DNA of 46,169 bases from an uncultured Marixanthomonas sp. (GTDB lineage: Bacteria; Bacteroidota; Bacteroidia; Flavobacteriales; Flavobacteriaceae): contig NZ_CAXBCK010000030.1 in the NCBI RefSeq assembly GCF_963974425.1, positions 1 to 46,169 of the forward strand, read 5' to 3'. Of the stretch, positions 10,657 through 27,773 are shown in pieces; the first letter of the stretch is position 1, and every line of letters starts with the position of its first letter. The notes under the pieces are model-generated. The model made no database searches, was not told the origin of the DNA, and was given only the letters and a program-made list of their open reading frames with translations. The position numbers and the translations under genes are program-made.

Positions 10657-12220
<1,564 letters not shown>

Positions 12221-13252
12221 ATGGCTATAACTAAAAATGCACTTATACGCTACAAAACCATAGATAAATGTCTGCAAAATAGATATCGTAAATGGGCTTT
12301 AAAAGATTTAATGCAAGCCTGTAGTGATGCTTTATATGAATTTGAGGGGCGTGATATAAATGTGAGCAAGCGGACAATACAATTAGACATACAATTGTTG
12401 CGTAGCGATAAATTAGGATATAGTGCTCCTATAGAGGTATATGACCGAAAATATTATCGATATAGTGACTTCAATTATACCATTACAGATATTCCTCTAA
12501 CGGAAAACGACATGAATGTCCTTACTGAAACAATGAACATGCTCAAACAATTTCAGGACTTTTCATTATTACAGGAGTTTAAAGGAATCATTAATAAATT
12601 GGAGGATAAAATTTTTACCGAGAAAAATAATAAGCCTGCAATTATTCATTTGGACAAAAACACAGACCTAAAAGGGTTAGAGCTGCTAGATGAACTCTAT
12701 CAAGCCATTTTAAAGAAAGTTGTTTTAAAGATCATGTATCAATCCTTCAAGGCTCAGTGTCCTTCTGAGATTATTTTTCATCCTCATTTGTTAAAAGAAT
12801 TTAATAATCGTTGGTTTTTAGTAGGTAGAAAAACGGAGAGTAGCAGAGTTCTAACGTTTGCTCTGGATAGAATCCTGGGGGTGGATTATGACTTTGAAAC
12901 AGAATACATACCTATAGGTTTTAATGCCGATTCTTATTATGAAAACACGATAGGCGTTACTGTTTTTGATCAGCAAAAACCTCAAGAATTAATTTTCAAA
13001 GTAGATAAAAAAAACGCCCCATATATTGTAACAAAACCATTCCATACTACACAAGAACTTGTTAAGGAACATCCCGATGGCAGCATAACTTTTAGTATTG
13101 AGGTGCACCATAACTATGAGTTGGAGCGCTTACTTCTTGGGTTTGGTGAAAGTCTGGAAGTATTAGCCCCTCGATTGCTCAGGAGAAATGTAAAACGAAA
13201 ACTGGAAAAGGCGGCAGGATTATATTATAAGGAAAAACCTTTAAAAATATAA
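12221..13252 (+). CDS. WYL-domain transcriptional regulator (N-terminal wHTH, central WYL domain, C-terminal WCX-like region; YafY/PafBC-like architecture)
   Basis: 343 aa. The N-terminal ~60-70 aa ('...IRYKTIDKCL...TIQLDIQLLRSDKLGYSAP') is assigned as the HTH. WYL-type block 'IMYQSFKAQCPSEIIFHPHLLKEFNNRWFLVGRKTESSRVLTFALDRI' (the RWFLVG here corresponds to the W-Y-L signature). Conserved C-terminal extension. Confidence 0.8.
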   Translation: MAITKNALIRYKTIDKCLQNRYRKWALKDLMQACSDALYEFEGRDINVSKRTIQLDIQLLRSDKLGYSAPIEVYDRKYYRYSDFNYTITDIPLTENDMNVLTETMNMLKQFQDFSLLQEFKGIINKLEDKIFTEKNNKPAIIHLDKNTDLKGLELLDELYQAILKKVVLKIMYQSFKAQCPSEIIFHPHLLKEFNNRWFLVGRKTESSRVLTFALDRILGVDYDFETEYIPIGFNADSYYENTIGVTVFDQQKPQELIFKVDKKNAPYIVTKPFHTTQELVKEHPDGSITFSIEVHHNYELERLLLGFGESLEVLAPRLLRRNVKRKLEKAAGLYYKEKPLKI

Positions 13253-13260
13253 AAATGCAT

Positions 13261-14016
13261 TTATAATGAAGATTTAATTTTTGCAAATTCCTGTTCTAAG
13301 AATTGTAATTTTTCTTCTATCCCGTCTTGAAAGTCGGGAATACGGTGGTAAAAAACATAGCGAATACGCCATAACTCCTTAATTTTTTTTAAGGGAATTG
13401 CGATTTCCTCAACATTCTTATGGTCTGCTCTTAGTACCATTTCTTGACTAGTGATGTATAGCCTTCGTAAGATTAGCTGATTTTCAAATAAGACCAAAAC
13501 TAAAATTCCATTGTTTAACTTTTTAAAGACTTTATTAGGAACGTACTCTCCTATAACTACATCTTTAGGAAAAAGACCTTTGTCATTTTTGCTCATCTCT
13601 AAATTTTCAACGGTATAGCCTCTAAATGTTTTTTCCGGATTGATAGGGAGTTGCAAGCATGGCATTGTATTGACAAATGGATTTTTATCATAAAAGGCAA
13701 TATAGTCTTGGCTGTTTTTTTGAGTAATACAAGGGACGCTTGCAAGTACCTCCTTATTGAGGTCTTTATGATTTGTAGTTAGATTTCCCTTAAACTTTAA
13801 AAGTTTATTGACCGTTAATTCTTTTGTTAGCAAATCATCTATGGGGATGCTAAAATAATTAGCAATTTTAATTATGGTTTCAATTTTTGGCTCACTACGA
13901 CCTTCTTCGTAAGCCCCTAGTGTACCACGCTTTAAGTCAAATAGTTCAGCAAAAGATTGCTGACTCAACGTTTTTACACTTCTTATTTTTCGAATGTTTT
14001 TACCAAAAAAAGACAT
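13261..14016 (-). CDS. XRE-family HTH repressor with C-terminal LexA/S24-peptidase-like domain lacking the catalytic Ser/Lys dyad
   Basis: 251 aa. N-terminal 'IRKIRSVKTLSQQSFAELFDLKRGTLGAYEEGRSEPKIETIIKIANYFSIPIDDLL' XRE HTH. The C-terminus aligns to LexA 'VEGDSM...NGQVVVARIDDEVTVKRL' as 'VENLEM...NNGILVLVLFENQLILRRL', i.e. Ser->Glu and Lys->Arg. Confidence 0.75.
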   Translation of the reverse strand: MSFFGKNIRKIRSVKTLSQQSFAELFDLKRGTLGAYEEGRSEPKIETIIKIANYFSIPIDDLLTKELTVNKLLKFKGNLTTNHKDLNKEVLASVPCITQKNSQDYIAFYDKNPFVNTMPCLQLPINPEKTFRGYTVENLEMSKNDKGLFPKDVVIGEYVPNKVFKKLNNGILVLVLFENQLILRRLYITSQEMVLRADHKNVEEIAIPLKKIKELWRIRYVFYHRIPDFQDGIEEKLQFLEQEFAKIKSSL

Positions 14017-14020
14017 GAAT

Positions 14021-14104
14021 TTGCTAATTTAATTTGCAATTTAAAATAATAATTGTATCTTCGTCTAACAATATTAGCAAAAAGGAATGAATTTAGCTAA
14101 TTTA
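14021..14104. promoter_or_regulatory. Candidate operator/promoter region at the XRE-S24 gene start (divergent from the PspA cluster)
   Basis: Imperfect palindrome 'TTGCTAATTTAATTTGCAA' (14021-14039, 16/19 self-complementary) begins 5 nt upstream of the start codon. A related 'TTAGCTAATTTA' direct copy lies at 14093-14104. Confidence 0.25.
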
Positions 14105-14282
14105 TTGAGCAATTGCTTTTCTTTTTAACGATACCATTCTGTAATATTTTAAAACTCACTGTTATGACTGTATTAATTTCTTGCATTTTGTTAATCTCGA
14201 TTACTTTTTTGTAGTCTTGAATTTTTTTTATTCGTATTATTAACCTCTTTAAAAATTTTAAATTAAACTGAAACACAACATT

Positions 14283-14678
14283 ATGAAAAGCCATTTCAAC
14301 ATTACGAGGGACTTTTTACTCGAACTTAATTTCAATATAACCCAAGAGAATATAGAGGATGGAGTTCTTGTAGTTCAAAAAGAAAACTCAGGAATAAGAA
14401 ACTTAATTTTAGGTGTAGCTCCTCCTATTTTGATTGTAGAACAGTTTATTTTTAAGATTAACAATCAATCTGAAAAGGTTTTTAAAAGTCTACTGCAAAA
14501 GAATCGAGATATTATACACGGTGCTTTTGTTCTGGATGAAACAGGTGAAAAAGTAATTTTTAGGGATACTTTACAAATTGAAAATCTAGATATGAACGAA
14601 CTGGAAGGTAGCCTAAACTCATTAAGCTTGCTTATGAGCGAATACTCAGAACAGATCATTGAATTCTCTAAATACTAA
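14283..14678 (+). CDS. Small cytoplasmic protein, YbjN/YjfI-like (T3SS-chaperone-like fold family) - tentative
   Basis: 131 aa, no signal peptide or TM. Size and alternating beta/alpha character fit YbjN-type domains. It sits 11 nt upstream of pspA. The family call is from memory and weak. Confidence 0.55.
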   Translation: MKSHFNITRDFLLELNFNITQENIEDGVLVVQKENSGIRNLILGVAPPILIVEQFIFKINNQSEKVFKSLLQKNRDIIHGAFVLDETGEKVIFRDTLQIENLDMNELEGSLNSLSLLMSEYSEQIIEFSKY

Positions 14679-14689
14679 AACTCAACATT

Positions 14690-15412
14690 ATGAATATATT
14701 TAAGCGATTATTTAAAATAGGTCAGGCTGAAACCAATTCGGCTATTGATAACATGGAAGATCCAATTAAAATGACCGAACAAGGGATCCGTGATATGAAA
14801 CAAGATCTGGACAAAAGTCTAGAAGCATTGGCGCAAGTTAAAGCATTGGCAATTCGTGCCAAAAATGAACAGGATGAACACCAAAACAAAGCCGATGAAT
14901 ATCAAAATAAGGCAATTACTATTCTAAAAAAAGGGCATAGTAAGGAAATTGAAGCTTCAGAGGCAGATCGATTAGCTAAAGAAGCCTTACTTCAAAAAGA
15001 AAAAGCAGAGCAGCAAGTACTGCGAGCTAAAGAGGAATCTGAGAAGTTTGACAACAATGTAGCGCAATTACAAAAGAACGTTCAGAGTATTAAAATAAAC
15101 ATTGGTAATTGGGAAAATGAACTGAAAACACTTAAAGCACGTGTAAAAGTAAGCAATGCTACTAAAAACTTGAACAAACAAATGGCAGAGCTTGACAGCA
15201 CTGGTACAGTTTCTATGTTAGAGCGCATGAAAGAAAAAGTAGCACAGGAAGAGGCACTTGCTGAAGCTTATGGAGATATTGCAAATGCGTCAAAATCTGT
15301 TGATGAAGAGATTGATAAAGCTGCAGATACTTCAAAGGCAAAAGCTGATGACGAACTGGCTAGATTAAAAGACCAATTAGGATTAAACAATACAAACTCT
15401 AAAGACGCATAA
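14690..15412 (+). CDS. pspA: PspA/IM30/Vipp1-family protein (bacterial ESCRT-III superfamily)
   Basis: 240 aa. N-terminus 'MNIFKRLFKIGQAETNSAIDNMEDPIKMTEQGIRDMKQDLDKSLEALAQVKALA' matches the PspA signature (M.IF.R......N.N..LDK.EDP.KM.EQ.IR.M...L). The rest is long coiled coil. Confidence 0.9.
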   Translation: MNIFKRLFKIGQAETNSAIDNMEDPIKMTEQGIRDMKQDLDKSLEALAQVKALAIRAKNEQDEHQNKADEYQNKAITILKKGHSKEIEASEADRLAKEALLQKEKAEQQVLRAKEESEKFDNNVAQLQKNVQSIKINIGNWENELKTLKARVKVSNATKNLNKQMAELDSTGTVSMLERMKEKVAQEEALAEAYGDIANASKSVDEEIDKAADTSKAKADDELARLKDQLGLNNTNSKDA

Positions 15413-15414
15413 CG

Positions 15415-16131
15415 GTGACAAACCTTTTGAATATACTCTTTTCTGAAGTCAATATGGTCTTGACCATCCTACTTATTTTATTGATTATCTATTGGATTAT
15501 CACTATGATAGGAGGGTTGGATTTTGATTTCGATTTTGATGTAGAGGTAGACATGGACGTGGATGCCGATATAGATATAGATTCTGGTATTGAAGGGGGG
15601 AGCATGGATTTTGAGGACATCTCAAATGCTGAGGTAAATCAAGAAGATGTGGTTGGTAAACGGCGTAAACCCTTAAAATGGTGGCAGGTTTTGCTAATCT
15701 ATTTCAACTTTGTGGGACTGCCCTTTATGTTCACCTTTACCTTTTGGATTTTTATTTGGTGGTTCATAACAGTTTTAACAACAGCCATTACTTTTACATA
15801 TGATAATTTTATTGGGTTTGTGATTATGTTATTGGCATTTTTTCCAGCCTTATTTATTAATAAAATTGTTACCAACCCTTTTAAAGGCTTCTTTAAGAAT
15901 TTAAACAAAGATGGAGATGCGCCTATTGATTATCTGGGGCGCAAAGGAACATTACTTTCTTCAATCTCTGAGGATAAAATGGGAAATGCTGAAATTAAAG
16001 TAGACGGGAATACAATGTCTGTCTATGTGAAATCCTTGACAGGTGAACCCTTACCCTACGGAAGTAGTATACTCATAATCAAACGGTCCTCAGACCATAA
16101 TTATTTTTTAGTACAAACATATAACGATTAA
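15415..16131 (+). CDS. YqiJ/NfeD-like membrane protein (flotillin partner): acidic repeat, multi-TM core, C-terminal NfeD-type OB/beta-barrel domain
   Basis: GTG start 2 nt after the pspA stop. Alternative start ATG at 15454 (MVLTILLILLIIYWII). 'DFDFDFDVEVDMDVDADIDIDS' acidic tract, then hydrophobic helices. C-terminal 'GRKGTLLSSISEDKMGNAEIKVDGNTMSVYVKSLTGEPLPYGSSILIIKRSSDHNYFLVQ' resembles the NfeD short beta-barrel. Position before a flotillin gene matches E. coli yqiJ-yqiK and B. subtilis nfeD-floT. Confidence 0.75.
   Translation: MTNLLNILFSEVNMVLTILLILLIIYWIITMIGGLDFDFDFDVEVDMDVDADIDIDSGIEGGSMDFEDISNAEVNQEDVVGKRRKPLKWWQVLLIYFNFVGLPFMFTFTFWIFIWWFITVLTTAITFTYDNFIGFVIMLLAFFPALFINKIVTNPFKGFFKNLNKDGDAPIDYLGRKGTLLSSISEDKMGNAEIKVDGNTMSVYVKSLTGEPLPYGSSILIIKRSSDHNYFLVQTYND
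15521..15583 (+). repeat. Imperfect GAT-period microrepeat encoding the (D-F/V/M/I)n acidic tract
   Basis: 'gattttgatttcgattttgatgtagaggtagacatggacgtggatgccgatatagatatagat'. Confidence 0.4.
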
Positions 16132-16145
16132 ACACCCAAACATTT

Positions 16146-18212
16146 ATGGAATCAATTTTACCAATTATTGGCATTGGAATAGGTATTTTACTGTTCCTTA
16201 TTATAGTATACTTTGCGATTATTGCGATGTTTTACAAAAAAGTCGCTCAAGGTCAAGCTCTTATCCGAACTGGTTTTGGCGGAACTAAAGTAGCAACCGA
16301 CAAAGGATTATATGTAGTTCCTGTTTTTCACAAGGTGGAAATTATGGACGTTTCGGTCAAAAAAATTCAGATTGAACGCCTCGCTCACGAAGGGCTTATC
16401 TGTAAGGATAATATGAGAGCAGATATCAAAGTTGCCTTTTTTGTTCGTGTAAACAACGATATAGAATACATAAAAAAAGTAGCTCAAACTATTGGTGTAA
16501 ATCGGGCATCGCGAATTGAAACCTTAGAAGATCTTTTTGAGGCGAAATTTTCCGAAGCTTTAAAAACCGTTGGTAAAAAATTCGATTTTATAGAATTATA
16601 TGAAGCTCGTCGTGAATTTCGTGACGAGATTGTAAATATTATCGGGACAGACCTTAATGGATATACATTAGAGGATTGTGCGATTGATTTCTTAGAACAA
16701 ACAGCCGTTACAGCTTTAAAAGCAGATAATATCCTGGATGCGGAAGGGATTAAGAAAATTACCGAGTTGACTGCTGTACAAAATGTAAAAGCCAATTTAA
16801 TCAAGCGAGATGAAGAAAAGACCATCCGTAAACAAGATGTGGAAGCTCGGGAGGCTATTTTGGAATTAGATAAGCAGTTAGCTGAAAAAGAAGAGCAACA
16901 AAAACGAGAGATTGCAAATATAACGGCTCGGGAAGAAGCTGAAACATTAAAGGTTTCTGAAGAAGAACGCTTAAAATCTGAAACAGCACGTATTGCAACA
17001 TTAGAAAAAGTGAAAGTTGCCGAAGAAAACATGGAGCGTCAAATAATCGTTGCGTTCAAGAACAAGCAACGTACTGATGCCGTAGAGACCGAACGAGTTG
17101 AAAAAGACCGTTTATTAGAAGCCACAGAGCGAGAGCGAGTGGTTACTTTAGCTCAAATTGAAAAAGAAAAGGTAGTTGAAGTAGAGAAGAAGAATATTCA
17201 AGATGTAATTCGTGACCGAGTAACACTTGAAAAAGGAGTGGTTGAAGAGCAGGAAAATATGAAGGACATTGAAGCCTTTAAAACTGCAGACCGTGAGAAA
17301 CAGGTGAAAATCACTATTGCTGAAGCTTCTGCTCAAGAAGATCTTATTAAGACTATTAAAGCTGCCGAAGCACAAAAAGAAGCGGCCAAACAAAAAGCCG
17401 AAGAAATTAATATTGAAGCACTAGCACATAAAGAAGCTAGTGAGAAACAAGCTGAAGCCCGTAAGATATTGGCTGAAGCACAAGCTAAAGAAGAAGCAAC
17501 TGTAGGTCTGTCTGAAGCACAAGTAATGCACGCAAAAGCAGATGCTAACGAACGTCAAGGGATTGTAGAGGCATCTATTATCGAGAAAAAAGCAAAAGCT
17601 GAAGCAGAAGGGATTCAAGCCAAAGCTGAAGCAAAACGTAAAGATGGTCTTGCCGAAGCAGATGTGATTAAAGAGAAAGCACTTGCTGATGCTGCCGGAA
17701 TTGAAGAGAAAGCCAATGCAATGAAGAAACTAGACGGTGTAGGAAAAGAACACGAAGAGTTTAAATTGAGATTGGATAAAGAATTACAAGTAGATTTGGC
17801 ACACATCAATATTCAAAAGGATATTGCAGATGCGCAGGCCCAAGTTATCGGAGATGCATTAAAAGCTGCTAAGATTGATATTGTAGGTGGAGAAACTATG
17901 TTCTTCGACCAGATAATCGGACAGATTACAAAGGCCAAAGGATATGACCGACTCGTTGAAAACAGTACCAATGTTCAAGATGTTAAAAATGCCATTTTAG
18001 GCAGCGAAGACGTAAAAGGAAACTTGTTAGAAAAAGTTCGAGAGTTTGCGGATAAATACGGAATCTCTTCCGAAGATATCAAAAACCTGACCATCGCAAA
18101 CCTCTTGTCGAGTTTAAGACAGAAGTCTGATGATACTGAAGAGCATACCATGTTGACCAATTTGACTAACCTTGCAAAAGGATTGGGTATCTCCAATAGC
18201 AAATTGAAATAA
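16146..18212 (+). CDS. Flotillin-family SPFH/band-7 protein (YqiK/FloT-like) with long Glu/Ala/Lys-rich coiled-coil
   Basis: 688 aa. N-terminal TM 'ILPIIGIGIGILLFLIIVYFAIIAMF'. SPFH block 'ALIRTGFGGTKVATDKGLYVVPVFHKVEIMDVSVKKIQIER...'. Extensive 'AEAQAKEEA...KAKAEAEGIQAKAEAKRK' flotillin-type repeats. Confidence 0.9.
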   Translation: MESILPIIGIGIGILLFLIIVYFAIIAMFYKKVAQGQALIRTGFGGTKVATDKGLYVVPVFHKVEIMDVSVKKIQIERLAHEGLICKDNMRADIKVAFFVRVNNDIEYIKKVAQTIGVNRASRIETLEDLFEAKFSEALKTVGKKFDFIELYEARREFRDEIVNIIGTDLNGYTLEDCAIDFLEQTAVTALKADNILDAEGIKKITELTAVQNVKANLIKRDEEKTIRKQDVEAREAILELDKQLAEKEEQQKREIANITAREEAETLKVSEEERLKSETARIATLEKVKVAEENMERQIIVAFKNKQRTDAVETERVEKDRLLEATERERVVTLAQIEKEKVVEVEKKNIQDVIRDRVTLEKGVVEEQENMKDIEAFKTADREKQVKITIAEASAQEDLIKTIKAAEAQKEAAKQKAEEINIEALAHKEASEKQAEARKILAEAQAKEEATVGLSEAQVMHAKADANERQGIVEASIIEKKAKAEAEGIQAKAEAKRKDGLAEADVIKEKALADAAGIEEKANAMKKLDGVGKEHEEFKLRLDKELQVDLAHINIQKDIADAQAQVIGDALKAAKIDIVGGETMFFDQIIGQITKAKGYDRLVENSTNVQDVKNAILGSEDVKGNLLEKVREFADKYGISSEDIKNLTIANLLSSLRQKSDDTEEHTMLTNLTNLAKGLGISNSKLK

Positions 18213-18216
18213 GACC

Positions 18217-18260
18217 CCTGTTGCGGAAGTCACCCTCCTAAAAAACAGGAAAGGTGACTT
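18217..18260 (+). promoter_or_regulatory. Two crossing (mutually exclusive or pseudoknot) stem-loops in the flotillin / ATPase intergenic region
   Basis: Stem A pairs 'cctgtt' (18217-18222) with 'aacagg' (18244-18249). Stem B pairs 'aagtcacc' (18227-18234) with 'ggtgactt' (18253-18260). The 3' arm of A lies inside the loop of B. No strong T-run follows. Confidence 0.3.
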
Positions 18261-18367
18261 TCAAAACTATCTATCGTACGGGTATAAATTCTCGTATAAA
18301 AAAATTGTTACTCTTTTTTAATAAATTGGCACTATAGCGAACATTAAGCAACTAAAATTTTCATCGT

Positions 18368-21300
18368 TTGGAAAAACGACTTGCCATGGCAGAACAACTT
18401 TCAGAAGATAAAAAAAATAAAAACCAATCCTTGGATGGTGGTACTTATGAGATCATCCAGAACCGTTTACAAAAACAAAAAACCGAGCTGCAGGACCGCT
18501 TACAAAAACTTAATGCAGATAGAAAGGATATTTTTGGTTCACTAGAAACCAAATTAATTGCGAACGACCGCATCAATACTGAAAACAATTGTATTGCACA
18601 AGACATCGTTTCTTTAGACAACATCTGTTTGTTTGGATATAATGTGCATTTTGGTTTACGAACAGAGATAACTTTGTCTGATGTGTTTAGTGTCTATGAG
18701 TTTAAAGACAATCGATTTGAACCAAAGCCGTTAGACTTGCTGGATAATGAAACCTTTAAAACTGATTTCACCAATCTATATAAATACTACCGGAACACCA
18801 TTTTCTCCAAGTTCGCCATTATTGGTAACTATTTACATATGGTTTTTCAACTCAGTGAAAGTGTTACTGATATTAAGACTTTTAAGTGGCTCATTAAAGA
18901 AAACAATTTAGAGTACATAGATAATCGGAGTGACCACGAATATAAATTTCCAGCACAACATGAATTTAAGTGGTTAGATGTAACTAGAGATATGCACCGG
19001 TATGGCGTTCATTCACATGTTTCTATTCTTGATCGTATTTTTGTAGAAACCATTAGTGGTGACTTAACAATTAAAATTGAAGACAATACCGAAGATGGAA
19101 AAGGAATCCTTTCAGAACCAGTTGAACATGTAGACCAAACCTTGGACGATGGTCAATACCGTTATGCAGATTTAGGCAATTTAATAGTCTTAGAAATTAA
19201 ACCTTTTCAGGAGTCATCAAGGTATTTTGTGTACAACCACAAACTTCAAGAAGTTCAAAAAATTGAAAGCATTAAGGATGCTTGTGTTTTGTTGCCAGAT
19301 GATCAGGGAATCATATTTCCAACAGGATATTATTTGCAAACAGGAGAGTATAACATTTTTGATAATGCGATTTCCAATGTCAAGTTTGAGCAAAAGATCG
19401 CATCGCCCAATGGGGAAGATTATCTGTATATATTTTATTCGGCACATGAAGGCTTATATAACTTAATGTCTTATAATGTAATAACCCAAAAAATAAATAC
19501 CCCAATTATCTGTAATGGTTTTACAGTCTTAGAAAACGGGGAGTTGTGTTATTTTAAGACAGAAGCAGAGCAGACAAAGCATCATATTATCCAGATTTGG
19601 CAAACTCCATTTTTAAAAGGAGACTTTATGCCTTCACAGCATGAAGATACGCTATTATATAAAATTGGGAATAAGGATGTTGTAAAAGCCATGGCCGAGG
19701 TCAATGGACTAATTAACCTATTGAACAAAGAGGATAATTACGATGGACTTTACAACGATATTTCCAAATTTTCCAAAGATATCCTCGATGCATATTATTG
19801 GCTCCCTGAAAAAGAAACACAAGAATTAAACCAGCCGCTACAGCAAATTAACAAAACGGCCAATGCAGCGATTGATGAGTTTCAGAAAGTAATACAACTT
19901 AAAAGAAATGCTGCCAAACAGACCGAGGAAGTTCGAGAAAAAGCAGAGGCACTGTTTAGTAAGATAAAAAGCACTTCGTTTAAGTCTATTAACGATTTTG
20001 TCTATTTATTGACACAGTTACGTACCTTACGAGGCGAAGTTATTTCACTTAAAGATGTTCGGTATGTGAATATTGAATTCACCAATAAGTTAGAAGAGGA
20101 AATAGCTTTACAAACTCAGAAAATATCCGAGCGCTGTGTCCAATTTCTATTACATGAAAAAGCACTACAGCCATATCATGATGCTATTGCAGAAAAACAG
20201 AACACTTTAGGTAAAGTAAGCAAGGTTATTGAAGCCCGAAAACTGGAAGATGAAATCAACCAAATTGCGGCAGACCTTGAGTTGTTAATTGATATTGTTT
20301 CCAATCTAGATATAGAGGACACGGCACATTCTACAGAGATTATTGATGCTATTTCACTTATTTTCGCAACCATTAATCAATTAAAAGCGGCACTCAAAAA
20401 CAAGAAGAAATCTCTTGGTAGTGAAGAAGCACACGCTGACTTTGCTGCACAGTTAAAATTGATTGATCAAAGTATTATCAATTATCTTGATATTGCAGTA
20501 ACACCTGAAAAGTGTGACGAATTTCAGACCAAAATATCCATTCAATTAGAAGAACTAGAAGGTAAATTCTCAGACTTTGAAGAATTTATTTCCTCGATTA
20601 TCGAAAAACGGGAAGAAGTTTATGCTGCTTTTGAATCTCGTAAAAACTCTTTGATTGAGAAACGAAATAAAAAAGCCTTGGCATTTCAAAATGCTTCCGA
20701 ACGAATTTTGAAAGGAGTCCAGAAGAAAGCTGAAAGTTTTAACACATCTGCCGAAATCAACGGTTATTTTGCTTCAGATCTTATGATCAACAAGGTTCGA
20801 GATATTGTTAAGCAATTAAAGGAATTAGACGATAGTGGTAAAGCTGAAGAAATTGAAACCAGCTTAAAGACCGCTAGAGAAGATGCTTTAAGAAAACTAA
20901 AGGATAAGCAAGACCTTTACGAAGACGGTGATACTATTATCCGTTTAGGAAATCATAAATTTGGAGTTAATAAGCAACCGTTAGATTTGACGATTGTTTT
21001 TAAAAATGGTTCTTTAAATTATCATTTAACGGGTACCGATTTTTATCAAGAACTCACCGATAAAACTTTATTACAATCCCGTCATTTATGGGATCAGGAG
21101 TTTGTTTCCGAAACAAGTGAAATTTATCGTTCTGCTTACCTTGCATACAAATTGTTTAAAAAATTACCCAAAGACCAGATGAAACAAGCTTCAGCCGAAG
21201 CCTTGCTTAAAATGGTACAGGAAGAAAGCCGCAGTGATTATTCCGAAGGATATATTAAAGGGGTTCATGATGTAGATGCTACTAAAATATTGCATGTATT

Positions 21301-23287
21301 AGTTGTAAAACATCATGAATTAGGATTGTTGGGCTGTCGTCCAGAAACACGTGCTTATGCTCAATATTTTTGGAATAGCCTTCCAAACGAAACCCGCGAA
21401 GATTTAGATCAAACAATCAAAGCTTCAGGTGAGGTCTTACAAATTTTCCCCGATACTCAAGAGTACGAGTTTATAATCGAGAAATTGAGTACTCATATTT
21501 CAGCATTTTCTTCGGAAACAGAATTATTCGATGCTATATTGAGTGAAGATATTGCAGCTTATATTTTTGATGAATTGCAGAGTGATTCAGAATTTGTTCG
21601 CAGCAACGTGGCTGTAGATCTTAAAGAAGCGTTTTTGAAAGCGCTTAAAAAACAAAATGCCGACATAAAATTTAAGAGTAGTTTTGAAGCAATTTCTAGT
21701 TTTGAAGGAAAAGTGCGGTTGATTAAACAATGGGTTTCTGCTTTTGTTAATAGTAGGGTTTCTTCAGATAAAGAGATACAGACACCATCAAAAAGACGTT
21801 ATATTGATGAGGTAGTGTGTTGTATATTATTTGAGGACGAATCAGTTTCCAAAGTAAATGCCATTTCACCTTCTGAAACTATTACGGGATTAAATGGAGA
21901 TCATCCATCGATTAATAAAGGAGTGTTTCACTTTAATTATCATGATTTTACCTCAAAGTTAAACGTATTTGCTTCTGAAGATGTACCAGCCTACAATACC
22001 TTTCGAAAAGCTAAACAAGATGTGACCGAGCAATTAAAAGAGGATTTGAGACTTGAAGAGTTTAAGCCCCGAGTCCTTACTTCGTTTGTACGAAATAAAT
22101 TGATAGACCAAGTATATTTTCCATTATTTGGAGACAATCTTGCTAAGCAATTGGGCACAGTGGGCGATACAAAAAGAACAGACCGAATGGGTTTGTTGTT
22201 ACTTATTTCGCCACCGGGGTATGGGAAGACTACCTTAATGGAATACATTGCTAATCGGTTGGGGTTAGTTTTTGTGAAGATAAACGGACCTGCAATTGGC
22301 CACGATGTAACCTCGATTGATCCAACCTCTGCCACTAACTCTGCAGCGCGTGAAGAACTGAAAAAGTTAAATATTGCTTTTGAAATGGGGAGTAATGTTA
22401 TGCTGTATCTAGATGATATTCAGCATTGTAGCCCAGAGTTTTTGCAAAAATTCATTTCATTATCTGATGGTACTCGAAAGATAGAAGGAGTATACAATGG
22501 TAAATCTAAAACATATGATTTGCGTGGAAAGAAATTCTGTGTGATTATGGCTGGAAACCCATATACGGAGAGTGGGGAGAAATTTAGGATTCCTGATATG
22601 CTGGCTAATCGTGCAGATATATACAACTTAGGAGATATCATTGGGGATACTGAGCATTTATTTAAACTGAGTTTAATTGAAAACTCATTGACTGCCAATC
22701 CTATGCTTCATCAATTGAGTAGCACTCATTTTGAAGATGTCTATACCTTAATCGATCGGGTAGAAAATAACACTCAAGATATTCAGTTAAAGGGAAATCA
22801 TAGTACGCAAGAAGTTCAGGATTATATAAATGTACTTGAAAAGGTTATTGCCATACGCAATACCGTGTTGAAAGTGAATGCTACTTATATAAAAAGCGCT
22901 GCGATGGAAGATGAATACCGAACTGAACCTGCTTTTAAGTTACAGGGTTCGTATCGGGACATGAACAAGCTAGTTGCTAAGGTAGTGCCTATTATGAACG
23001 ATGCAGAACTAGATACGCTTTTGCTTTCACATTATGAGAGTGAGTCACAAACGCTAACATCGGCTGCCGAAGCAAATTTACTAAAATACAGAGAGCTTAT
23101 AAACAGTTTGGACGAAAGTCAACAACAACGTTGGTCGAGTATAAAGGAGACCTTTGTAAAGAATAATAAGCTTAACGGGTTTAGTAACAAAAACGAAATG
23201 GCGCAAGTCTTGTCACAGATGATGGAGTTTACTGATAATTTGGAAGGAATTCGAGAAGTACTTGAAAAAGGGTTAAAAAAAGATTGA
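18368..23287 (+). CDS. Giant (1639 aa) cytoplasmic protein with C-terminal AAA+ ATPase module and ~1200-aa uncharacterised N-terminal region (beta-rich N-domain plus long coiled coil)
   Basis: Walker A 'LLLISPPGYGKTTLMEYIANRLG'. Walker B 'NVMLYLDDIQH'. Sensor-1-like 'FCVIMAGNPYTE' and Arg-containing 'PDMLANRADIYNLGD', about 1200 aa from the N-terminus. No TM or signal peptide. Alternative start at 18386 (MAEQL). Confidence 0.85.
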   Translation: MEKRLAMAEQLSEDKKNKNQSLDGGTYEIIQNRLQKQKTELQDRLQKLNADRKDIFGSLETKLIANDRINTENNCIAQDIVSLDNICLFGYNVHFGLRTEITLSDVFSVYEFKDNRFEPKPLDLLDNETFKTDFTNLYKYYRNTIFSKFAIIGNYLHMVFQLSESVTDIKTFKWLIKENNLEYIDNRSDHEYKFPAQHEFKWLDVTRDMHRYGVHSHVSILDRIFVETISGDLTIKIEDNTEDGKGILSEPVEHVDQTLDDGQYRYADLGNLIVLEIKPFQESSRYFVYNHKLQEVQKIESIKDACVLLPDDQGIIFPTGYYLQTGEYNIFDNAISNVKFEQKIASPNGEDYLYIFYSAHEGLYNLMSYNVITQKINTPIICNGFTVLENGELCYFKTEAEQTKHHIIQIWQTPFLKGDFMPSQHEDTLLYKIGNKDVVKAMAEVNGLINLLNKEDNYDGLYNDISKFSKDILDAYYWLPEKETQELNQPLQQINKTANAAIDEFQKVIQLKRNAAKQTEEVREKAEALFSKIKSTSFKSINDFVYLLTQLRTLRGEVISLKDVRYVNIEFTNKLEEEIALQTQKISERCVQFLLHEKALQPYHDAIAEKQNTLGKVSKVIEARKLEDEINQIAADLELLIDIVSNLDIEDTAHSTEIIDAISLIFATINQLKAALKNKKKSLGSEEAHADFAAQLKLIDQSIINYLDIAVTPEKCDEFQTKISIQLEELEGKFSDFEEFISSIIEKREEVYAAFESRKNSLIEKRNKKALAFQNASERILKGVQKKAESFNTSAEINGYFASDLMINKVRDIVKQLKELDDSGKAEEIETSLKTAREDALRKLKDKQDLYEDGDTIIRLGNHKFGVNKQPLDLTIVFKNGSLNYHLTGTDFYQELTDKTLLQSRHLWDQEFVSETSEIYRSAYLAYKLFKKLPKDQMKQASAEALLKMVQEESRSDYSEGYIKGVHDVDATKILHVLVVKHHELGLLGCRPETRAYAQYFWNSLPNETREDLDQTIKASGEVLQIFPDTQEYEFIIEKLSTHISAFSSETELFDAILSEDIAAYIFDELQSDSEFVRSNVAVDLKEAFLKALKKQNADIKFKSSFEAISSFEGKVRLIKQWVSAFVNSRVSSDKEIQTPSKRRYIDEVVCCILFEDESVSKVNAISPSETITGLNGDHPSINKGVFHFNYHDFTSKLNVFASEDVPAYNTFRKAKQDVTEQLKEDLRLEEFKPRVLTSFVRNKLIDQVYFPLFGDNLAKQLGTVGDTKRTDRMGLLLLISPPGYGKTTLMEYIANRLGLVFVKINGPAIGHDVTSIDPTSATNSAAREELKKLNIAFEMGSNVMLYLDDIQHCSPEFLQKFISLSDGTRKIEGVYNGKSKTYDLRGKKFCVIMAGNPYTESGEKFRIPDMLANRADIYNLGDIIGDTEHLFKLSLIENSLTANPMLHQLSSTHFEDVYTLIDRVENNTQDIQLKGNHSTQEVQDYINVLEKVIAIRNTVLKVNATYIKSAAMEDEYRTEPAFKLQGSYRDMNKLVAKVVPIMNDAELDTLLLSHYESESQTLTSAAEANLLKYRELINSLDESQQQRWSSIKETFVKNNKLNGFSNKNEMAQVLSQMMEFTDNLEGIREVLEKGLKKD

Positions 23288-23414
23288 CATTATCTAACTG
23301 TGTTTAAAAAACAATGCTCAATCAAGTATTCTTGTTGGGCATTTTGTGTTTCAATTCACAATAGAGTTGTGAGTGATTGTGGAGCCGGGGAGCTTACAGA
23401 AAAAGTGATCTCCA

Positions 23415-23470
23415 GTGGCTTCCATCCTACAAATGGAAAGCCACGGACTACTTCCAGTTTTTATTGTTTT
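23415..23470 (+). terminator. Strong hairpin followed by a T-rich tract downstream of the giant ATPase gene (also the 3' end of candidate sRNA 1)
   Basis: 'gtggcttccat'-cctacaa-'atggaaagccac' (11-bp stem with one bulge), then 'ggactacttccagtttttattgtttt'. Confidence 0.4.
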
Positions 23471-23803
23471 ATATCATCACTTTAAGCAAGCTCGGTGATT
23501 ACATAAAAAAACCACGCTCAATAAGCATGGCTTTCTATGTATTGTGGAGCCGAAGGGACCAGAACCGGGCTGCTGTTTATACTGTGAATAGGGGGTTCAG
23601 CAGGGGCTATTTATTGTGCGCACCGAATAGGTGACTTTTTAACATTTGGGAGGGATATTTAATATGGTTTACGGTGTTCTGTTCCTTTTTGTAAGAAAAA
23701 TATATATTTTAATTCTTCCCACTTACATTAACATTTTTGTAGATTTAAAATAAAGAAACCTGCATATTAACTTAGTTTCTCTTAAAATTTTAATCGGATT
23801 TTT

Positions 23804-24797: not shown

Positions 24798-27773
24798 TTA
24801 ATTTTGTTTGATGATTTTATAGCTACCAGAATTTTCACCAACGGTTACTTTTACCAATAACATTTGGTTTGCATTTATAAATGGAGCTAAATTTAGAGTT
24901 ACCGTTCTTTTGTTACCAAGTATTGCTGCGTCCTTTTGGGTTACTATATTTTGACCTAACATATTAAATACCTCAACAGTAATTTCTCCTTCTTGATTCG
25001 CTATGTCTACATTTAAAATACCGCTAGTTGGATTTGGGTAAACCGATATAACATCTTTCAAGACATCATCAACCTCTAAGACTTCTTGTACTAAAATGTA
25101 GTTTTCTTTGGTTACTTCGGTTCCTGTTCCAGCAGCATTTGCTACTATGAGGCTTACATTAAAGTTTCCTTCTTCCAAGTAAGCCACCGTTGGACTGGCC
25201 TCTGACGAAGTTGCTGGGATGCCACCTTCAAAAGTCCAAGTCCATGAGTTTGGGTTGTTTGCACTTAAATCGGTAAACGTAATGGCATTTCCTGGAGTAG
25301 TCGTCACTTCCGAAGCAACAAAGTCTGCCACAGGAATCTGCGCCCCTAAGTTTTCTTTCAATGCAAAAACTATGGTTGAGGAGGCATCAAACGTTATATT
25401 GTTAAAAGTAGCATCCTGTTGTGGTTCGTTTGATCCACTTGGATGCTGTACAGAGAAGAAACCGTATTTAAAATCTGGTGTAAAGGTCAGCCCTGTTGGT
25501 TCAGAACCATTCGGCATAGAGGCAAATAATTCAACATTAGGTACGGCTTGTGTATGGTCTGGGCGTACTACCCATATATAATTATTTCCACCATCTTGCA
25601 GAACCCAAAGGTTTCCTTTATCATCAAACGTTAAATTGTCATTGCCGCCACCCCAAGCTTCGTTAAACACACCCGAACCTGTTGTAATGTCATAAGAGGT
25701 ACCACCAACAAATGTCTGGAAATTTGTGATGGTTGAACCATTATCTGTAAAACTGTACACGCGACTTTTTCCTTTAGAAGTAAAATAAATTTCACCTGTT
25801 AATGGATTAATCTCACAGTCTTCTACTCCATTAAAATCGGTTCCACCCAATGCTGCTGCAGCGGCAGTAACGTTGTTACGCTCTGCAGTAGTATTATTAG
25901 GTACTTGCACCCAAGTTGCTGTTGGAGAAGATGGATCGTTTCCTACTAATGGTGAATCCAATTTCAAAACATATAAAGAGCCACTGGAAAGATCCCCTGG
26001 GTTATTTGCAACAAATTTATAGACACAGTCTGTACCTCCATCTTCCCCAAAGTAAGCTGTTTTTAAATCGTGGGAAACTACTACATTTTCGTGTTTCATT
26101 CTTCCCATAGCCCATAACTTTTCTTGGCCGTTTCCATAATCTACCACTTCTGCGGTTGCAGGATCAATTTCTACTAGCCAACCTACATCTTGGTAACCAT
26201 CTGCATTAATATCTCCTCCATTTGTAGATTCTTCGGCAGTAATTATAGTACCCCATGGGGTTATTCCACCAGAGCAATTACGAGTGGTAGTTACCAAAGC
26301 ATTGTTAAAAAAATCTACTGGTTGTGTTTGGGTTACTTCCCACAACAGGGTGTTGTCATTAAGGTTTACATCTGCAATTGTTACCCCTCCAGGTGTAGTT
26401 TCATGATTAATAGCAACATAGCCCCCTGTGCTAGAGTCTTCTATAGGAATATATCCTGTAAAATCATTATTTCCACCTACAGTACCTACTCCAGTGGTAT
26501 AAGGATCACCTTGCTTTACGATTAGTTGAAAACGATGATCGTCTGCAATAATCATTTTTGGAGTTTGTCCCGTTGGTTCTATAGAAGTAAAACAACCAAT
26601 GGTTCCTGTTTCACAAGGGACTGTAGTGGCCTCGTTGTTTATGAACATATCAAACTTTAAATCTGAACTCTGTCCATCACGATTGTGCAACTCTACCGCA
26701 ATTTTATTGATACCTTCAATAAAAAAAGACTTTGCTATGGAATGTGTAAAAAAAGCGTTCTCGTCTTCACCACTTACTGTTGCTTCAGCATTTGTTAAGT
26801 AATCGGTTGGAGGTCCGGGCATATTATCTCTAATAACTTCTACACCATTTATATATACAATAGCCCCGTCATCACGGTTTAGCCCAAGAATTACATTTTC
26901 AGTTAAATCTGCTAGCGTTATAGTTACTTCTTTTACAAAATATGTAGTAATGTATTTATTGTTAGGGTCTGGGCCAAAAGAGATATCAGTGGCAACCGGA
27001 TCTCCATACCCTAATGGGGCAAAACCAGCAGACCATGTGCTAATGTCGTATCCTGCTTCCGTCCAAATTTCATTATCTAAACTTACACCTGTGTCTAGGT
27101 AAGACCAAACAAGACCCGCTTCCATTGGATATGTTGCTGGGCTTGGCTCTGCCGGAATAAAGTCTGTAGCCATATCAAATCCTAAATCTGAGCTACTACC
27201 AGAGCGTTGATGCAATTCTACGGCGATGACGTTATCGCCATTTTGCAATAAATTTTCAACTGTAAAGTTGAAAAAAGTATCTTCATCGTTACCTCCTACG
27301 GTACTATCTGCAAAAGTGTTGTAAGTAATTGTGCCAGATGGCATATTGTCGCGGATAATTTCGGTACCATTAAGATATACTACGGCTCCGTCATCTCTTA
27401 ATAGTTTAAAGATAAGATCACCGTAGATAGAAGCGTCTACAATATTAAACTCGTATCTAAAATAATAGGTAGGATATTTATTATTAGCATCTGGACCAAA
27501 AGACAAGGTAGTTATCTCGTCTGAATCTCCGTATCCTAATTGAGCAGCTCCTGTGGCCCAAGCACTATCATCATACGCCACTTCTCTCCAAGCAGTACCG
27601 AGATCCATCCCGGTATCGTGGTAACTCCATGTGCTTCCGGCATCAAAAGGGAAACCTCCTGATAGTACCATATTACTTTGGCGAGTGTTTATTTCGTCTC
27701 CTGTATTTGCTAAGCCTAAAACGCTTAGTAACATAAGCACTACCACTAAGGGTAAATTTGTTTTCATTTTCAA
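24798..27773 (-). CDS. Secreted T9SS cargo: duplicated ~190-aa N-terminal beta-sandwich-like domains, PhoX-like (DUF839-type) beta-propeller phosphatase domain, PKD domain, T9SS C-terminal domain
   Basis: 991 aa. Signal peptide. Two repeats 'W(S)Y.DTG..L....W.E..YD.S.W..G.A.LGYGD...'. Central 'CSGGITPWGTIITAEES' and 'MGRMKHENVVV' blocks recalled from PhoX/DUF839. 'WTWTFEGG' PKD block. C-terminal 'VYPNPTSGILNVDI...YKIIKQN'. The PhoX assignment is from memory. Confidence 0.75.
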   Translation of the reverse strand: MKMKTNLPLVVVLMLLSVLGLANTGDEINTRQSNMVLSGGFPFDAGSTWSYHDTGMDLGTAWREVAYDDSAWATGAAQLGYGDSDEITTLSFGPDANNKYPTYYFRYEFNIVDASIYGDLIFKLLRDDGAVVYLNGTEIIRDNMPSGTITYNTFADSTVGGNDEDTFFNFTVENLLQNGDNVIAVELHQRSGSSSDLGFDMATDFIPAEPSPATYPMEAGLVWSYLDTGVSLDNEIWTEAGYDISTWSAGFAPLGYGDPVATDISFGPDPNNKYITTYFVKEVTITLADLTENVILGLNRDDGAIVYINGVEVIRDNMPGPPTDYLTNAEATVSGEDENAFFTHSIAKSFFIEGINKIAVELHNRDGQSSDLKFDMFINNEATTVPCETGTIGCFTSIEPTGQTPKMIIADDHRFQLIVKQGDPYTTGVGTVGGNNDFTGYIPIEDSSTGGYVAINHETTPGGVTIADVNLNDNTLLWEVTQTQPVDFFNNALVTTTRNCSGGITPWGTIITAEESTNGGDINADGYQDVGWLVEIDPATAEVVDYGNGQEKLWAMGRMKHENVVVSHDLKTAYFGEDGGTDCVYKFVANNPGDLSSGSLYVLKLDSPLVGNDPSSPTATWVQVPNNTTAERNNVTAAAAALGGTDFNGVEDCEINPLTGEIYFTSKGKSRVYSFTDNGSTITNFQTFVGGTSYDITTGSGVFNEAWGGGNDNLTFDDKGNLWVLQDGGNNYIWVVRPDHTQAVPNVELFASMPNGSEPTGLTFTPDFKYGFFSVQHPSGSNEPQQDATFNNITFDASSTIVFALKENLGAQIPVADFVASEVTTTPGNAITFTDLSANNPNSWTWTFEGGIPATSSEASPTVAYLEEGNFNVSLIVANAAGTGTEVTKENYILVQEVLEVDDVLKDVISVYPNPTSGILNVDIANQEGEITVEVFNMLGQNIVTQKDAAILGNKRTVTLNLAPFINANQMLLVKVTVGENSGSYKIIKQN

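Follow-up and report, generated by a model that had tools for sequence, protein, structure and literature searches.

What does a giant AAA+ ATPase act on when its gene stands at the end of a row that also encodes a PspA-family protein and a flotillin? The question is posed by a module at positions 14283-23287 of a 46,169-nt contig stretch, NZ_CAXBCK010000030.1, from an uncultured Marixanthomonas sp., a marine flavobacterium; the whole of this stretch was analysed and is called the window here. A first-pass annotation of the same DNA had proposed that the cluster encodes one joint membrane machine in which the ATPase plays a Vps4-like role towards PspA. The reading that we prefer, and to which we give a probability of roughly 60%, is that the cluster is the Bacteroidota form of a published envelope-stress operon, made up of genes for a CesT-like protein, a YjfJ-type PspA, YqiJ, a YqiK-type flotillin and a DUF3686 ATPase, and that it works by a scaffold-remodelling mechanism.

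As a computational observation the cluster is already known, and it is not a discovery of the present work. Ravi et al. (mSystems 2024; bioRxiv 2020; PMC11237479) described operons that combine CesT/Tir-PspA (ANH61663.1) with a YqiJ/YuaF protein of three transmembrane (TM) segments, a band-7/flotillin protein and a beta-propeller/coiled-coil AAA+ protein. Their supplement gives Dokdonia donghaensis DSW-1 as the example, the prototype of the operon, with a divergent '<-cHTH+Protease' gene upstream; they mention abbreviated operons without PspA, and they read the whole as an ESCRT-like, chaperone-assisted membrane-dynamics system (PMC11237479). The joint machine of the first-pass annotation is the same inference that these authors had published. 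The window operon agrees with theirs in its five genes, their order, the divergent cHTH+protease gene, the host family Flavobacteriaceae and the functional inference; nothing essential differs, and the window holds another member. What is added here is a quantified census, an operator motif, the structural neighbours of the AAA+ module and the flotillin triad as the constant partner of the ATPase.

The five open reading frames (ORFs) of the cluster are the following, with protein lengths in amino acids (aa).

14283-14678, + strand: small CesT/Tir-like protein of chaperone type, 131 aa, at the head of the operon (PF22550)
14690-15412, + strand: PspA/IM30 protein of the ESCRT-III superfamily, YjfJ-type, 240 aa (PF04012)
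15415-16131, + strand: YqiJ/YuaF-type short NfeD membrane protein, 238 aa (profile match to YqiJ, hydropathy)
16146-18212, + strand: YqiK-type flotillin, 688 aa (BLASTP against E. coli YqiK)
18368-23287, + strand: soluble DUF3686-family AAA+ protein, 1639 aa (DUF3686, DUF7902, AAA)

All five genes run in one direction, as first annotated, with spacers of 11, 2, 14 and 155 bp in order. The shared strand, short spacers and conserved order are those of an operon, and a terminator scan of the + strand called none inside the intergenic spacers of the cluster. The closest relatives of the window proteins come from Dokdonia and Marixanthomonas, Dokdonia being the nearest cultured genus, and the window ATPase is 80% identical to Dokdonia proteins.

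The 131-aa protein is a member of CesT_Tir_1 (PF22550), which it matches over residues 1-130 of 131 (E=1e-56, 190.6 bits against a cut-off of 27). Its earlier label, YbjN-like, was right only in a loose sense, the Pfam YbjN match (E=5e-4) lying under the cut-off of that family; judged by the family match, a CesT-like chaperone role is plausible, and no pairwise similarity to E. coli YjfI was found. The PspA/IM30 assignment of the 240-aa protein held (PF04012, E=3e-43, 148 bits against a cut-off of 33.9, residues 2-229). This protein is 27% identical over its full length to E. coli YjfJ (E=2e-9) and has no TM segment by hydropathy; its N-terminal segment MNIFKRLFKIGQAE, which looks amphipathic, is kept in 32 operon-linked orthologues.

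The 238-aa and 688-aa proteins found no match of their own in Pfam, NCBIfam or PDB sequence searches, and a shallow profile of 20 sequences for the 238-aa protein gave no match to PDB, Pfam or E. coli YqiJ, its results being negative or weak, with hhalign included. Their identities were resolved by a deeper cross-phylum profile in the one case and by direct BLASTP against YqiK in the other. The profile draws on 59 operon-linked homologues and aligns along the length of E. coli YqiJ with 34 bits (E=1e-12; positions 7-207 of the hidden Markov model, YqiJ residues 2-196), and this homology, the several TM segments and a gene position upstream of flotillin (59 loci) place the 238-aa protein among the YqiJ/YuaF short NfeD proteins (DUF1449), where the first-pass annotation had put it. 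It combines three hydrophobic segments with an acidic linker and, at the C-terminus, an OB-like domain; its homologues are annotated at source as DUF1449 or OB-fold proteins, and its match to the YuaF structure 2k14 is weak (E=0.19). The linker (residues 36-56, window 15520-15585) is strikingly acidic and reads DFDFDFDVEVDMDVDADIDID, an Asp alternating with other residues. In 20 homologues the majority of these Asp residues show little or no variation; the counterpart in E. coli YqiJ is weak, and the segment may bind cations.

The 688-aa protein is 32% identical to E. coli YqiK over 468 aa (E=5e-47), which makes it a YqiK-type flotillin and bears out the SPFH flotillin expected at first reading. 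Its N-terminal membrane anchor is followed by an SPFH domain and a long coiled-coil and flotillin region rich in Ala and Glu, and its one hydrophobic segment spans residues 1-35. The databases contain an identical protein under the name 'flotillin family protein [uncultured Marixanthomonas sp.]', and orthologues 86-92% identical across genera are named flotillin, many of them carrying PF01145. A search of the window protein with Pfam-A Band_7 gave no match even at E=10, though orthologues about 90% identical to it have precomputed PF01145 matches, so that domain-based pipelines would overlook this gene.

The flotillin pair as constant partner of the ATPase

Which of its neighbours does the ATPase keep across genomes? 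In species-representative genomes at least 585 ATPase matches were confirmed, and the best 80 loci were fetched. ORFs were called in each locus and searched iteratively with profiles seeded from the window proteins, and a locus was informative for the flotillin count where at least 2.5 kb upstream of the ATPase was visible. At 60 of the 63 informative loci the gene next upstream of the ATPase encodes flotillin, and YqiJ stands beside flotillin in 59 loci. The counts by phylum are as follows.

Bacteroidota: flotillin upstream of the ATPase in 38/40; PspA near the ATPase in 32/40; CesT-like gene and divergent helix-turn-helix (HTH) gene in 30/40
Planctomycetota: flotillin upstream of the ATPase in 7/7
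Verrucomicrobiota: flotillin upstream of the ATPase in 10/10
Clostridia: flotillin upstream of the ATPase in 4/4
Desulfobacterota: flotillin upstream of the ATPase in 1/2
These last four phyla together: PspA within 10 kb in 0/22

The six-gene layout of HTH, CesT, PspA, YqiJ, flotillin and ATPase occurs in 30 independent Bacteroidota genomes from several orders, and the CesT-like gene stands before pspA in 30 loci. This arrangement is far beyond chance. All-against-all clustering of the 80 loci found no further family in more than 8 of them, and since no other family recurs, the borders of the module are the HTH gene and the ATPase gene. The single conserved module supposed at first pass is therefore upheld by the gene order in 30 of 40 Bacteroidota loci, the tiny spacers and the lack of other recurrent families. 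Whether this order is widespread in Bacteroidota had been left open; it is widespread there, as well as already described, and the ATPase gene is syntenic with the flotillin and pspA genes, the opposite of the outcome that had been named as evidence against one module.

The triad also occurs without the rest. A tblastn search of plasmid records added 13 ATPase homologues; Proteus, Vibrio, Halomonas, Streptomyces and Deinococcus have the YqiJ-flotillin-ATPase triad on its own. On the Pseudomonas fluorescens plasmid pQBR103 (83452-106326), a YjfI-PspA-(polyamine genes) block is followed by co-directional genes for YqiJ, an SPFH protein and the ATPase. PspA is near the triad in one of six plasmid or chromosome records, and the triad spans at least eight phyla, counting the six plasmid records. 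Its presence on megaplasmids and its place behind a PspA operon on pQBR103 suggest that the module moves horizontally. The pQBR103 block is a complete yjfIJKLMC-like PspA/polyamine operon and includes a rhomboid protease gene; megaplasmids and plasmids with ATPase homologues include those of Hymenobacter, Streptomyces and Deinococcus.

The YqiJ-flotillin-ATPase triad is thus the evolutionary core. Because flotillin accompanies the ATPase in nearly all informative loci, including those of phyla without a nearby pspA, the constant partner of the ATPase is the flotillin pair and not PspA. The block of CesT, PspA and regulator is a lineage-specific addition in Bacteroidota, with a YjfI-PspA variant on the Pseudomonas plasmid.

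Do the two blocks then merely lie side by side? One hypothesis is that the cesT-pspA pair and the yqiJ-flotillin-ATPase unit are neighbours by chance, each with a function of its own, and that their products do not cooperate physically. The blocks are indeed separate in many lineages, and the spacer between pspA and yqiJ is as long as 535 bp in some genomes. However, this spacer is 2 bp in the window, the order from CesT to ATPase is fixed in the 30 loci from several Bacteroidota orders, PspA lies beside the triad on pQBR103 too, and the likely equivalent operon of Pseudomonas is co-transcribed and co-regulated (PMC10948618). We therefore regard two independent units as decidedly unlikely. The spacer between flotillin and ATPase ranges from -11 to 2360 nt across genomes, the two genes overlapping by 11 nt in two Clostridia loci.

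The DUF3686 ATPase

The first-pass annotation had seen in the 1639-aa protein a C-terminal AAA+ ATPase as the only recognisable part. The ATPase stands; the rest of that statement does not, since DUF3686 (residues 40-477, E=1e-178) and DUF7902 (598-682, E=1e-25) precede the single AAA match (1277-1397, E=1e-7). In order, the parts are an N-terminal helix, a beta-propeller-like region (about 77-433), a helical/coiled-coil stretch (from 482 to at least 699), an unassigned but conserved middle part and a single AAA+ module, and no TM or hydrophobic segment was found. The architecture of DUF3686, DUF7902 and AAA is present in 27 of 27 diverse members and places the window protein in this family, which counts 1353 representatives at 50% clustering, 421 of them with E<1e-30. 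Members are typically 1600-1900 aa long and align across the entire N-terminal 1200 residues; a cluster look-up for 10 distant representatives named members from Vibrio and Streptacidiphilus. The listed start codon is a TTG at 18368, but the true start may be the in-frame ATG 18 nt further on, at 18386, the N-termini of homologues being variable.

22175-22777, + strand: AAA+ module, about residues 1270-1470 (Walker A/B and sensor-1 motifs)

The module carries a Walker A motif SPPGYGKTT (1281-1289), a Walker B motif LYLDDIQH (1346-1353), sensor-1 N1397 and R1415. Among 27 homologues of 28-48% identity, SPPGYGKT, DDIQH, GNPY (sensor-1), PDML.NR and a distal QGSYR are invariant, and these invariant motifs argue for a working nucleotide site. 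AlphaFold models of parts of the protein were made from a shallow alignment. In the N-terminal model a helix (24-55) is followed by a beta-rich region (77-433) and long helices (482-699); the Foldseek neighbours of the beta-rich region are all beta-propellers (tricorn, WD40, prolyl oligopeptidase, TolB), at low TM-scores, and the modelled propeller and coiled coil agree with the description by Ravi et al. In the AAA+ model, helix 3 and the sensor-1 strand are separated by a beta-hairpin, that is, a predicted pre-sensor-1 hairpin, which the classic AAA clade (Vps4, katanin, spastin) lacks; the nearest structures to the model are MoxR, midasin and dynein, with Vps4 ranking 29th. On these models the AAA+ module leans towards the pre-sensor-1-insert lineages and against a Vps4-type origin.

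Is the ATPase nevertheless a counterpart of Vps4 in function? It would then mainly disassemble or drive PspA polymers, with flotillin and NfeD as a mere platform. PspA belongs to the ESCRT-III superfamily, and bacteria are without a known Vps4 equivalent according to reviews (PMC7619361). The pspA gene is in the operon at most of the Bacteroidota loci (32 of 40), and PspA joins the triad again on pQBR103, there with a different chaperone family (YjfI). Furthermore, all 32 operon-linked PspA orthologues retain a C-terminal [DE]xLxxLKxxLG helix (window 15340-15412), a candidate docking peptide. However, the ATPase occurs with flotillin and YqiJ but no nearby pspA in Planctomycetota, Verrucomicrobiota, Clostridia and Desulfobacterota, and the same pspA-free context recurs in Proteus, Vibrio, Halomonas, Streptomyces and Deinococcus. 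The C-terminal PspA motif is also found in E. coli YjfJ, whose end it resembles, and no DUF3686 gene lies within the yqiJK or yjfIJ loci, the only E. coli loci examined. No Pfam match to a MIT domain was found in the window ATPase or 26 homologues.

The likeness to ESCRT-III/Vps4 therefore goes as far as an ESCRT-III-superfamily PspA encoded beside an AAA+ ATPase. The window ATPase family departs from that system in the lack of a detected MIT domain, of consistent co-occurrence with an ESCRT-III gene and often of any nearby pspA, as well as in the predicted hairpin and the MoxR/dynein-like nearest structures. The Vps4-like role proposed at first pass is left unsupported, as flotillin/YqiJ linkage is near-obligate and PspA is absent near the ATPase in the other phyla, and we consider a functional Vps4 equivalent unlikely. 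The analogy is weakened; PspA remains a possible secondary substrate of the ATPase.

An alternative hypothesis takes the large protein for a DNA-repair ATPase that merely neighbours membrane genes. The Pfam text for DUF3686 reads 'ATPase involved in DNA repair', and under PGAP its homologues are called 'DNA repair ATPase', a name that has spread over at least several hundred database proteins; there are weak RuvB_N matches across the P-loop, and the neighbouring regulator is LexA/CI-like in architecture. Yet the RuvB similarity is restricted to about 45 residues around Walker A, and the 27 diverse members contain no nuclease, helicase or DNA-binding domain; nuclease or helicase folds in the N-terminal region were among the findings that the first-pass annotation had named as evidence against its own model. 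The N-terminal region is modelled as beta-propeller plus coiled coil, with only beta-propellers as structural neighbours, the flotillin/YqiJ linkage is near-obligate with no repair gene recurrent nearby in the 80 loci, and the S24-like domain of the regulator is without a conserved catalytic Ser. A literature search found no papers that mention DUF3686. The label 'DNA repair ATPase' for DUF3686 proteins is without support and misleading, and a repair function for this protein is extremely improbable.

Proposed scaffold remodelling in an envelope-stress operon

Where has such an operon been studied at the bench? In Pseudomonas aeruginosa, all six genes of bacABCDEF (PA3732-PA3727 / PA14_16140-16200) are co-transcribed, as followed by reverse-transcription PCR across every junction (PMC10948618). 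BacB is a PspA that rises on osmotic shock, and when BacA is lost the levels of BacB to BacF go up 6- to 13-fold; mutants in bacA or bacB show defects in biofilm, in rhamnolipid production and in virulence (PMC10948618). BacC has been identified as a short NfeD and BacD as the flotillin PaFlo3 (PMC13086221), and the annotation of BacE (PA14_16190) reads 'ATPase involved in DNA repair' (PMC8855297). The composition of CesT-fold chaperone, PspA, short NfeD, flotillin and ATPase is that of the window, and bacABCDEF is the likely equivalent operon. It differs in that BacA belongs to the DUF2170/YjfI family and not to CesT_Tir_1, in its sixth gene, bacF, and in a reported sigma-54-dependent promoter where the window has a presumed HTH repressor.

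Other known systems match in part. B. subtilis pspA-ydjGHI (samGHI) likewise encodes PspA with an SPFH protein, which recruits PspA to the membrane (PMC8581546, PMC9239133), but this SPFH protein is of another subfamily, its partners are TPM and zinc-ribbon proteins and no AAA+ ATPase is present. E. coli yqiJK and B. subtilis yuaF-floT share the NfeD gene upstream of a flotillin gene, with homology to YqiJ and YqiK computed here; no ATPase, PspA or CesT-like gene adjoins E. coli yqiJK. An SPFH cage is paired with an AAA+ machine in HflK/C-FtsH and in eukaryotic prohibitin with the m-AAA protease. By analogy, HflK/C-FtsH is the nearest precedent for the pairing of flotillin and ATPase, a membrane cage with an AAA+ machine, and a closer one than ESCRT-III/Vps4. 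FtsH differs in being a membrane-anchored AAA protease of the classic clade, whereas the window ATPase is soluble, has no protease domain, carries a propeller/coiled-coil N-terminus and is probably of a different AAA+ type.

How could the products of the operon work together? We hypothesize that the HTH protein represses the operon until stress. At the inner membrane, on its cytoplasmic side, the membrane-anchored flotillin and its NfeD partner would form an SPFH patch or cage, on which the soluble ATPase would dock through its beta-propeller and coiled-coil arm. With the energy of ATP it would then put together, reshape or clear this scaffold or its clients, in analogy to FtsH with HflK/C. 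In Bacteroidota, the CesT-like chaperone would restrain PspA, which, made from the same transcript, would be recruited to the same damaged membrane sites and could serve the ATPase as a second substrate. The topology leaves room for cytoplasmic contact, because the ATPase and PspA have no TM segment and flotillin and YqiJ are membrane-anchored.

Several points weigh against this preferred reading. Gene neighbourhood cannot say what the substrate of the ATPase is. The census covers the best 80 of at least 585 matches, all of them at least 44% identical to the query, and the transcript evidence comes from the likely equivalent Pseudomonas operon only, whose BacE is linked to DUF3686 by matching annotation only; deletion of paFlo3 there gave only about 20% less biofilm (PMC13086221). 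Walker B has Asp-Asp and not Asp-Glu, so hydrolysis may be slow or regulatory, and both structure models of the ATPase are moderate (pLDDT, the predicted local distance difference test, of 64 and 66, the latter for the N-terminal model). Finally, the 155-bp spacer before the ATPase gene contains a stem-loop and would allow separate or attenuated expression of the ATPase.

18227-18260, + strand: stem-loop AAGTCACC-N18-GGTGACTT, read from the sequence, with 8-bp arms, an 18-nt loop and no T-run

The terminator scan of the + strand passed over this stem-loop, which may act in attenuation or as a site of RNA processing.

A more specific proposal is held only tentatively, and we think it more doubtful than probable: the DUF3686 protein would be a dedicated ATP-driven remodeller of flotillin/NfeD cages and, in Bacteroidota and some Pseudomonas, also of PspA polymers. 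If this were true, the DUF3686 ATPase would be the missing energy source for bacterial membrane repair by SPFH and ESCRT-III-like proteins, independent of Vps4 and of MoxR/dynein-like lineage. Reviews know of no Vps4-like ATPase in bacteria and query how PspA assembly is regulated (PMC7619361). The operon sets the ATPase beside both flotillin and PspA, the building or clearance of flotillin cages being equally open, and the census points to flotillin/YqiJ ahead of PspA as its partner. The value of the cluster lies in a tractable experimental system, for example in Flavobacterium, in Dokdonia or with bacE of P. aeruginosa.

The divergent regulator and the flanking DNA

What switches the operon on? 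Upstream of the CesT-like gene lie a divergent regulator gene and a short palindrome.

13261-14016, - strand: Cro/CI-type HTH regulator, 251 aa, with a C-terminal S24-peptidase-like domain (HTH_19, Peptidase_S24)
14021-14039, no strand assigned: candidate operator, a 19-bp imperfect palindrome TTGCTAATTTAATTTGCAA, 4 nt upstream of the start codon of the regulator

The regulator matches HTH_19 at E=2e-11 and Peptidase_S24 weakly (E=0.046), and homologues occupy the same divergent place in 30 of the 30 loci that carry CesT-PspA. Its S24-like domain is probably non-catalytic, given that the motif of the catalytic Ser (GDSM-like) is not conserved among the 30 orthologues; for the same reason a self-cleaving regulator of the LexA type was rejected. 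The consensus of the candidate operator is TTGCTAAT-N3-ATTTGCAA, with one exact copy in the window. At no more than 2 mismatches, 22 of 30 loci have the motif between the HTH and CesT genes; these intergenic regions contain 23 sites in 7.2 kb, whereas the other 735 kb of the same loci contain 6. The palindrome is probably the operator of the divergent regulator, and the operon is probably controlled by this Cro/CI-type protein through it, as far as comparison of the sequences can tell. Further boxes containing GCTAAT lie near the operator at about 14073-14083 and 14093-14112, and a copy with 3 mismatches lies inside the HTH ORF at 13847-13865. A sigma-70 promoter scan gave 36 matches against 32 in shuffled sequence, which is no excess, with a tool that does not cover Bacteroidota promoters.

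Directly upstream of the module, at 10657-13252, stands a divergent pair of genes for RtcB (- strand) and a WYL/WCX regulator (+ strand). Band-7 proteins have been linked to rtc loci in the literature, as in the case of PaFlo8 of P. aeruginosa. RtcB and WYL were rejected as members of the module, with RtcB near in 3 of the 80 loci and WYL in none.

Could the cluster instead be an anti-phage or abortive-infection module that responds to phage membrane damage? It adjoins this WYL regulator and RtcB in the window, its homologues occur on megaplasmids and are patchy across Pseudomonas, and a link between PspA and CBASS has been reported (PMC11153139). However, PADLOC returned only marginal matches (mad8, E=1.4e-3, at the P-loop; JetC, E=0.0098, at the coiled coil), the flanking genes are neither conserved nor defence genes, and most of the Flavobacteriaceae loci sampled carry the module. 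Conservation across genera is high, at 86-92% identity for flotillin and about 70-80% for the ATPase, and defence genes usually evolve faster than this. A defence function is accordingly judged very improbable.

Downstream of the ATPase gene, at 23376-23640, two copies of ATTGTGGAGCCG stand about 165 bp apart and overlap an unconserved ORF of 85 aa; they have no Rfam match, and an Rfam search of the whole window gave zero matches. Farther out, the flanks at 6311-10267 and 24798-27773 encode large cargo proteins of type IX secretion (GEVED/HYR and PhoX/PKD, respectively), each with a Por_Secre_tail, which are ordinary for Flavobacteriaceae and unrelated to the module.

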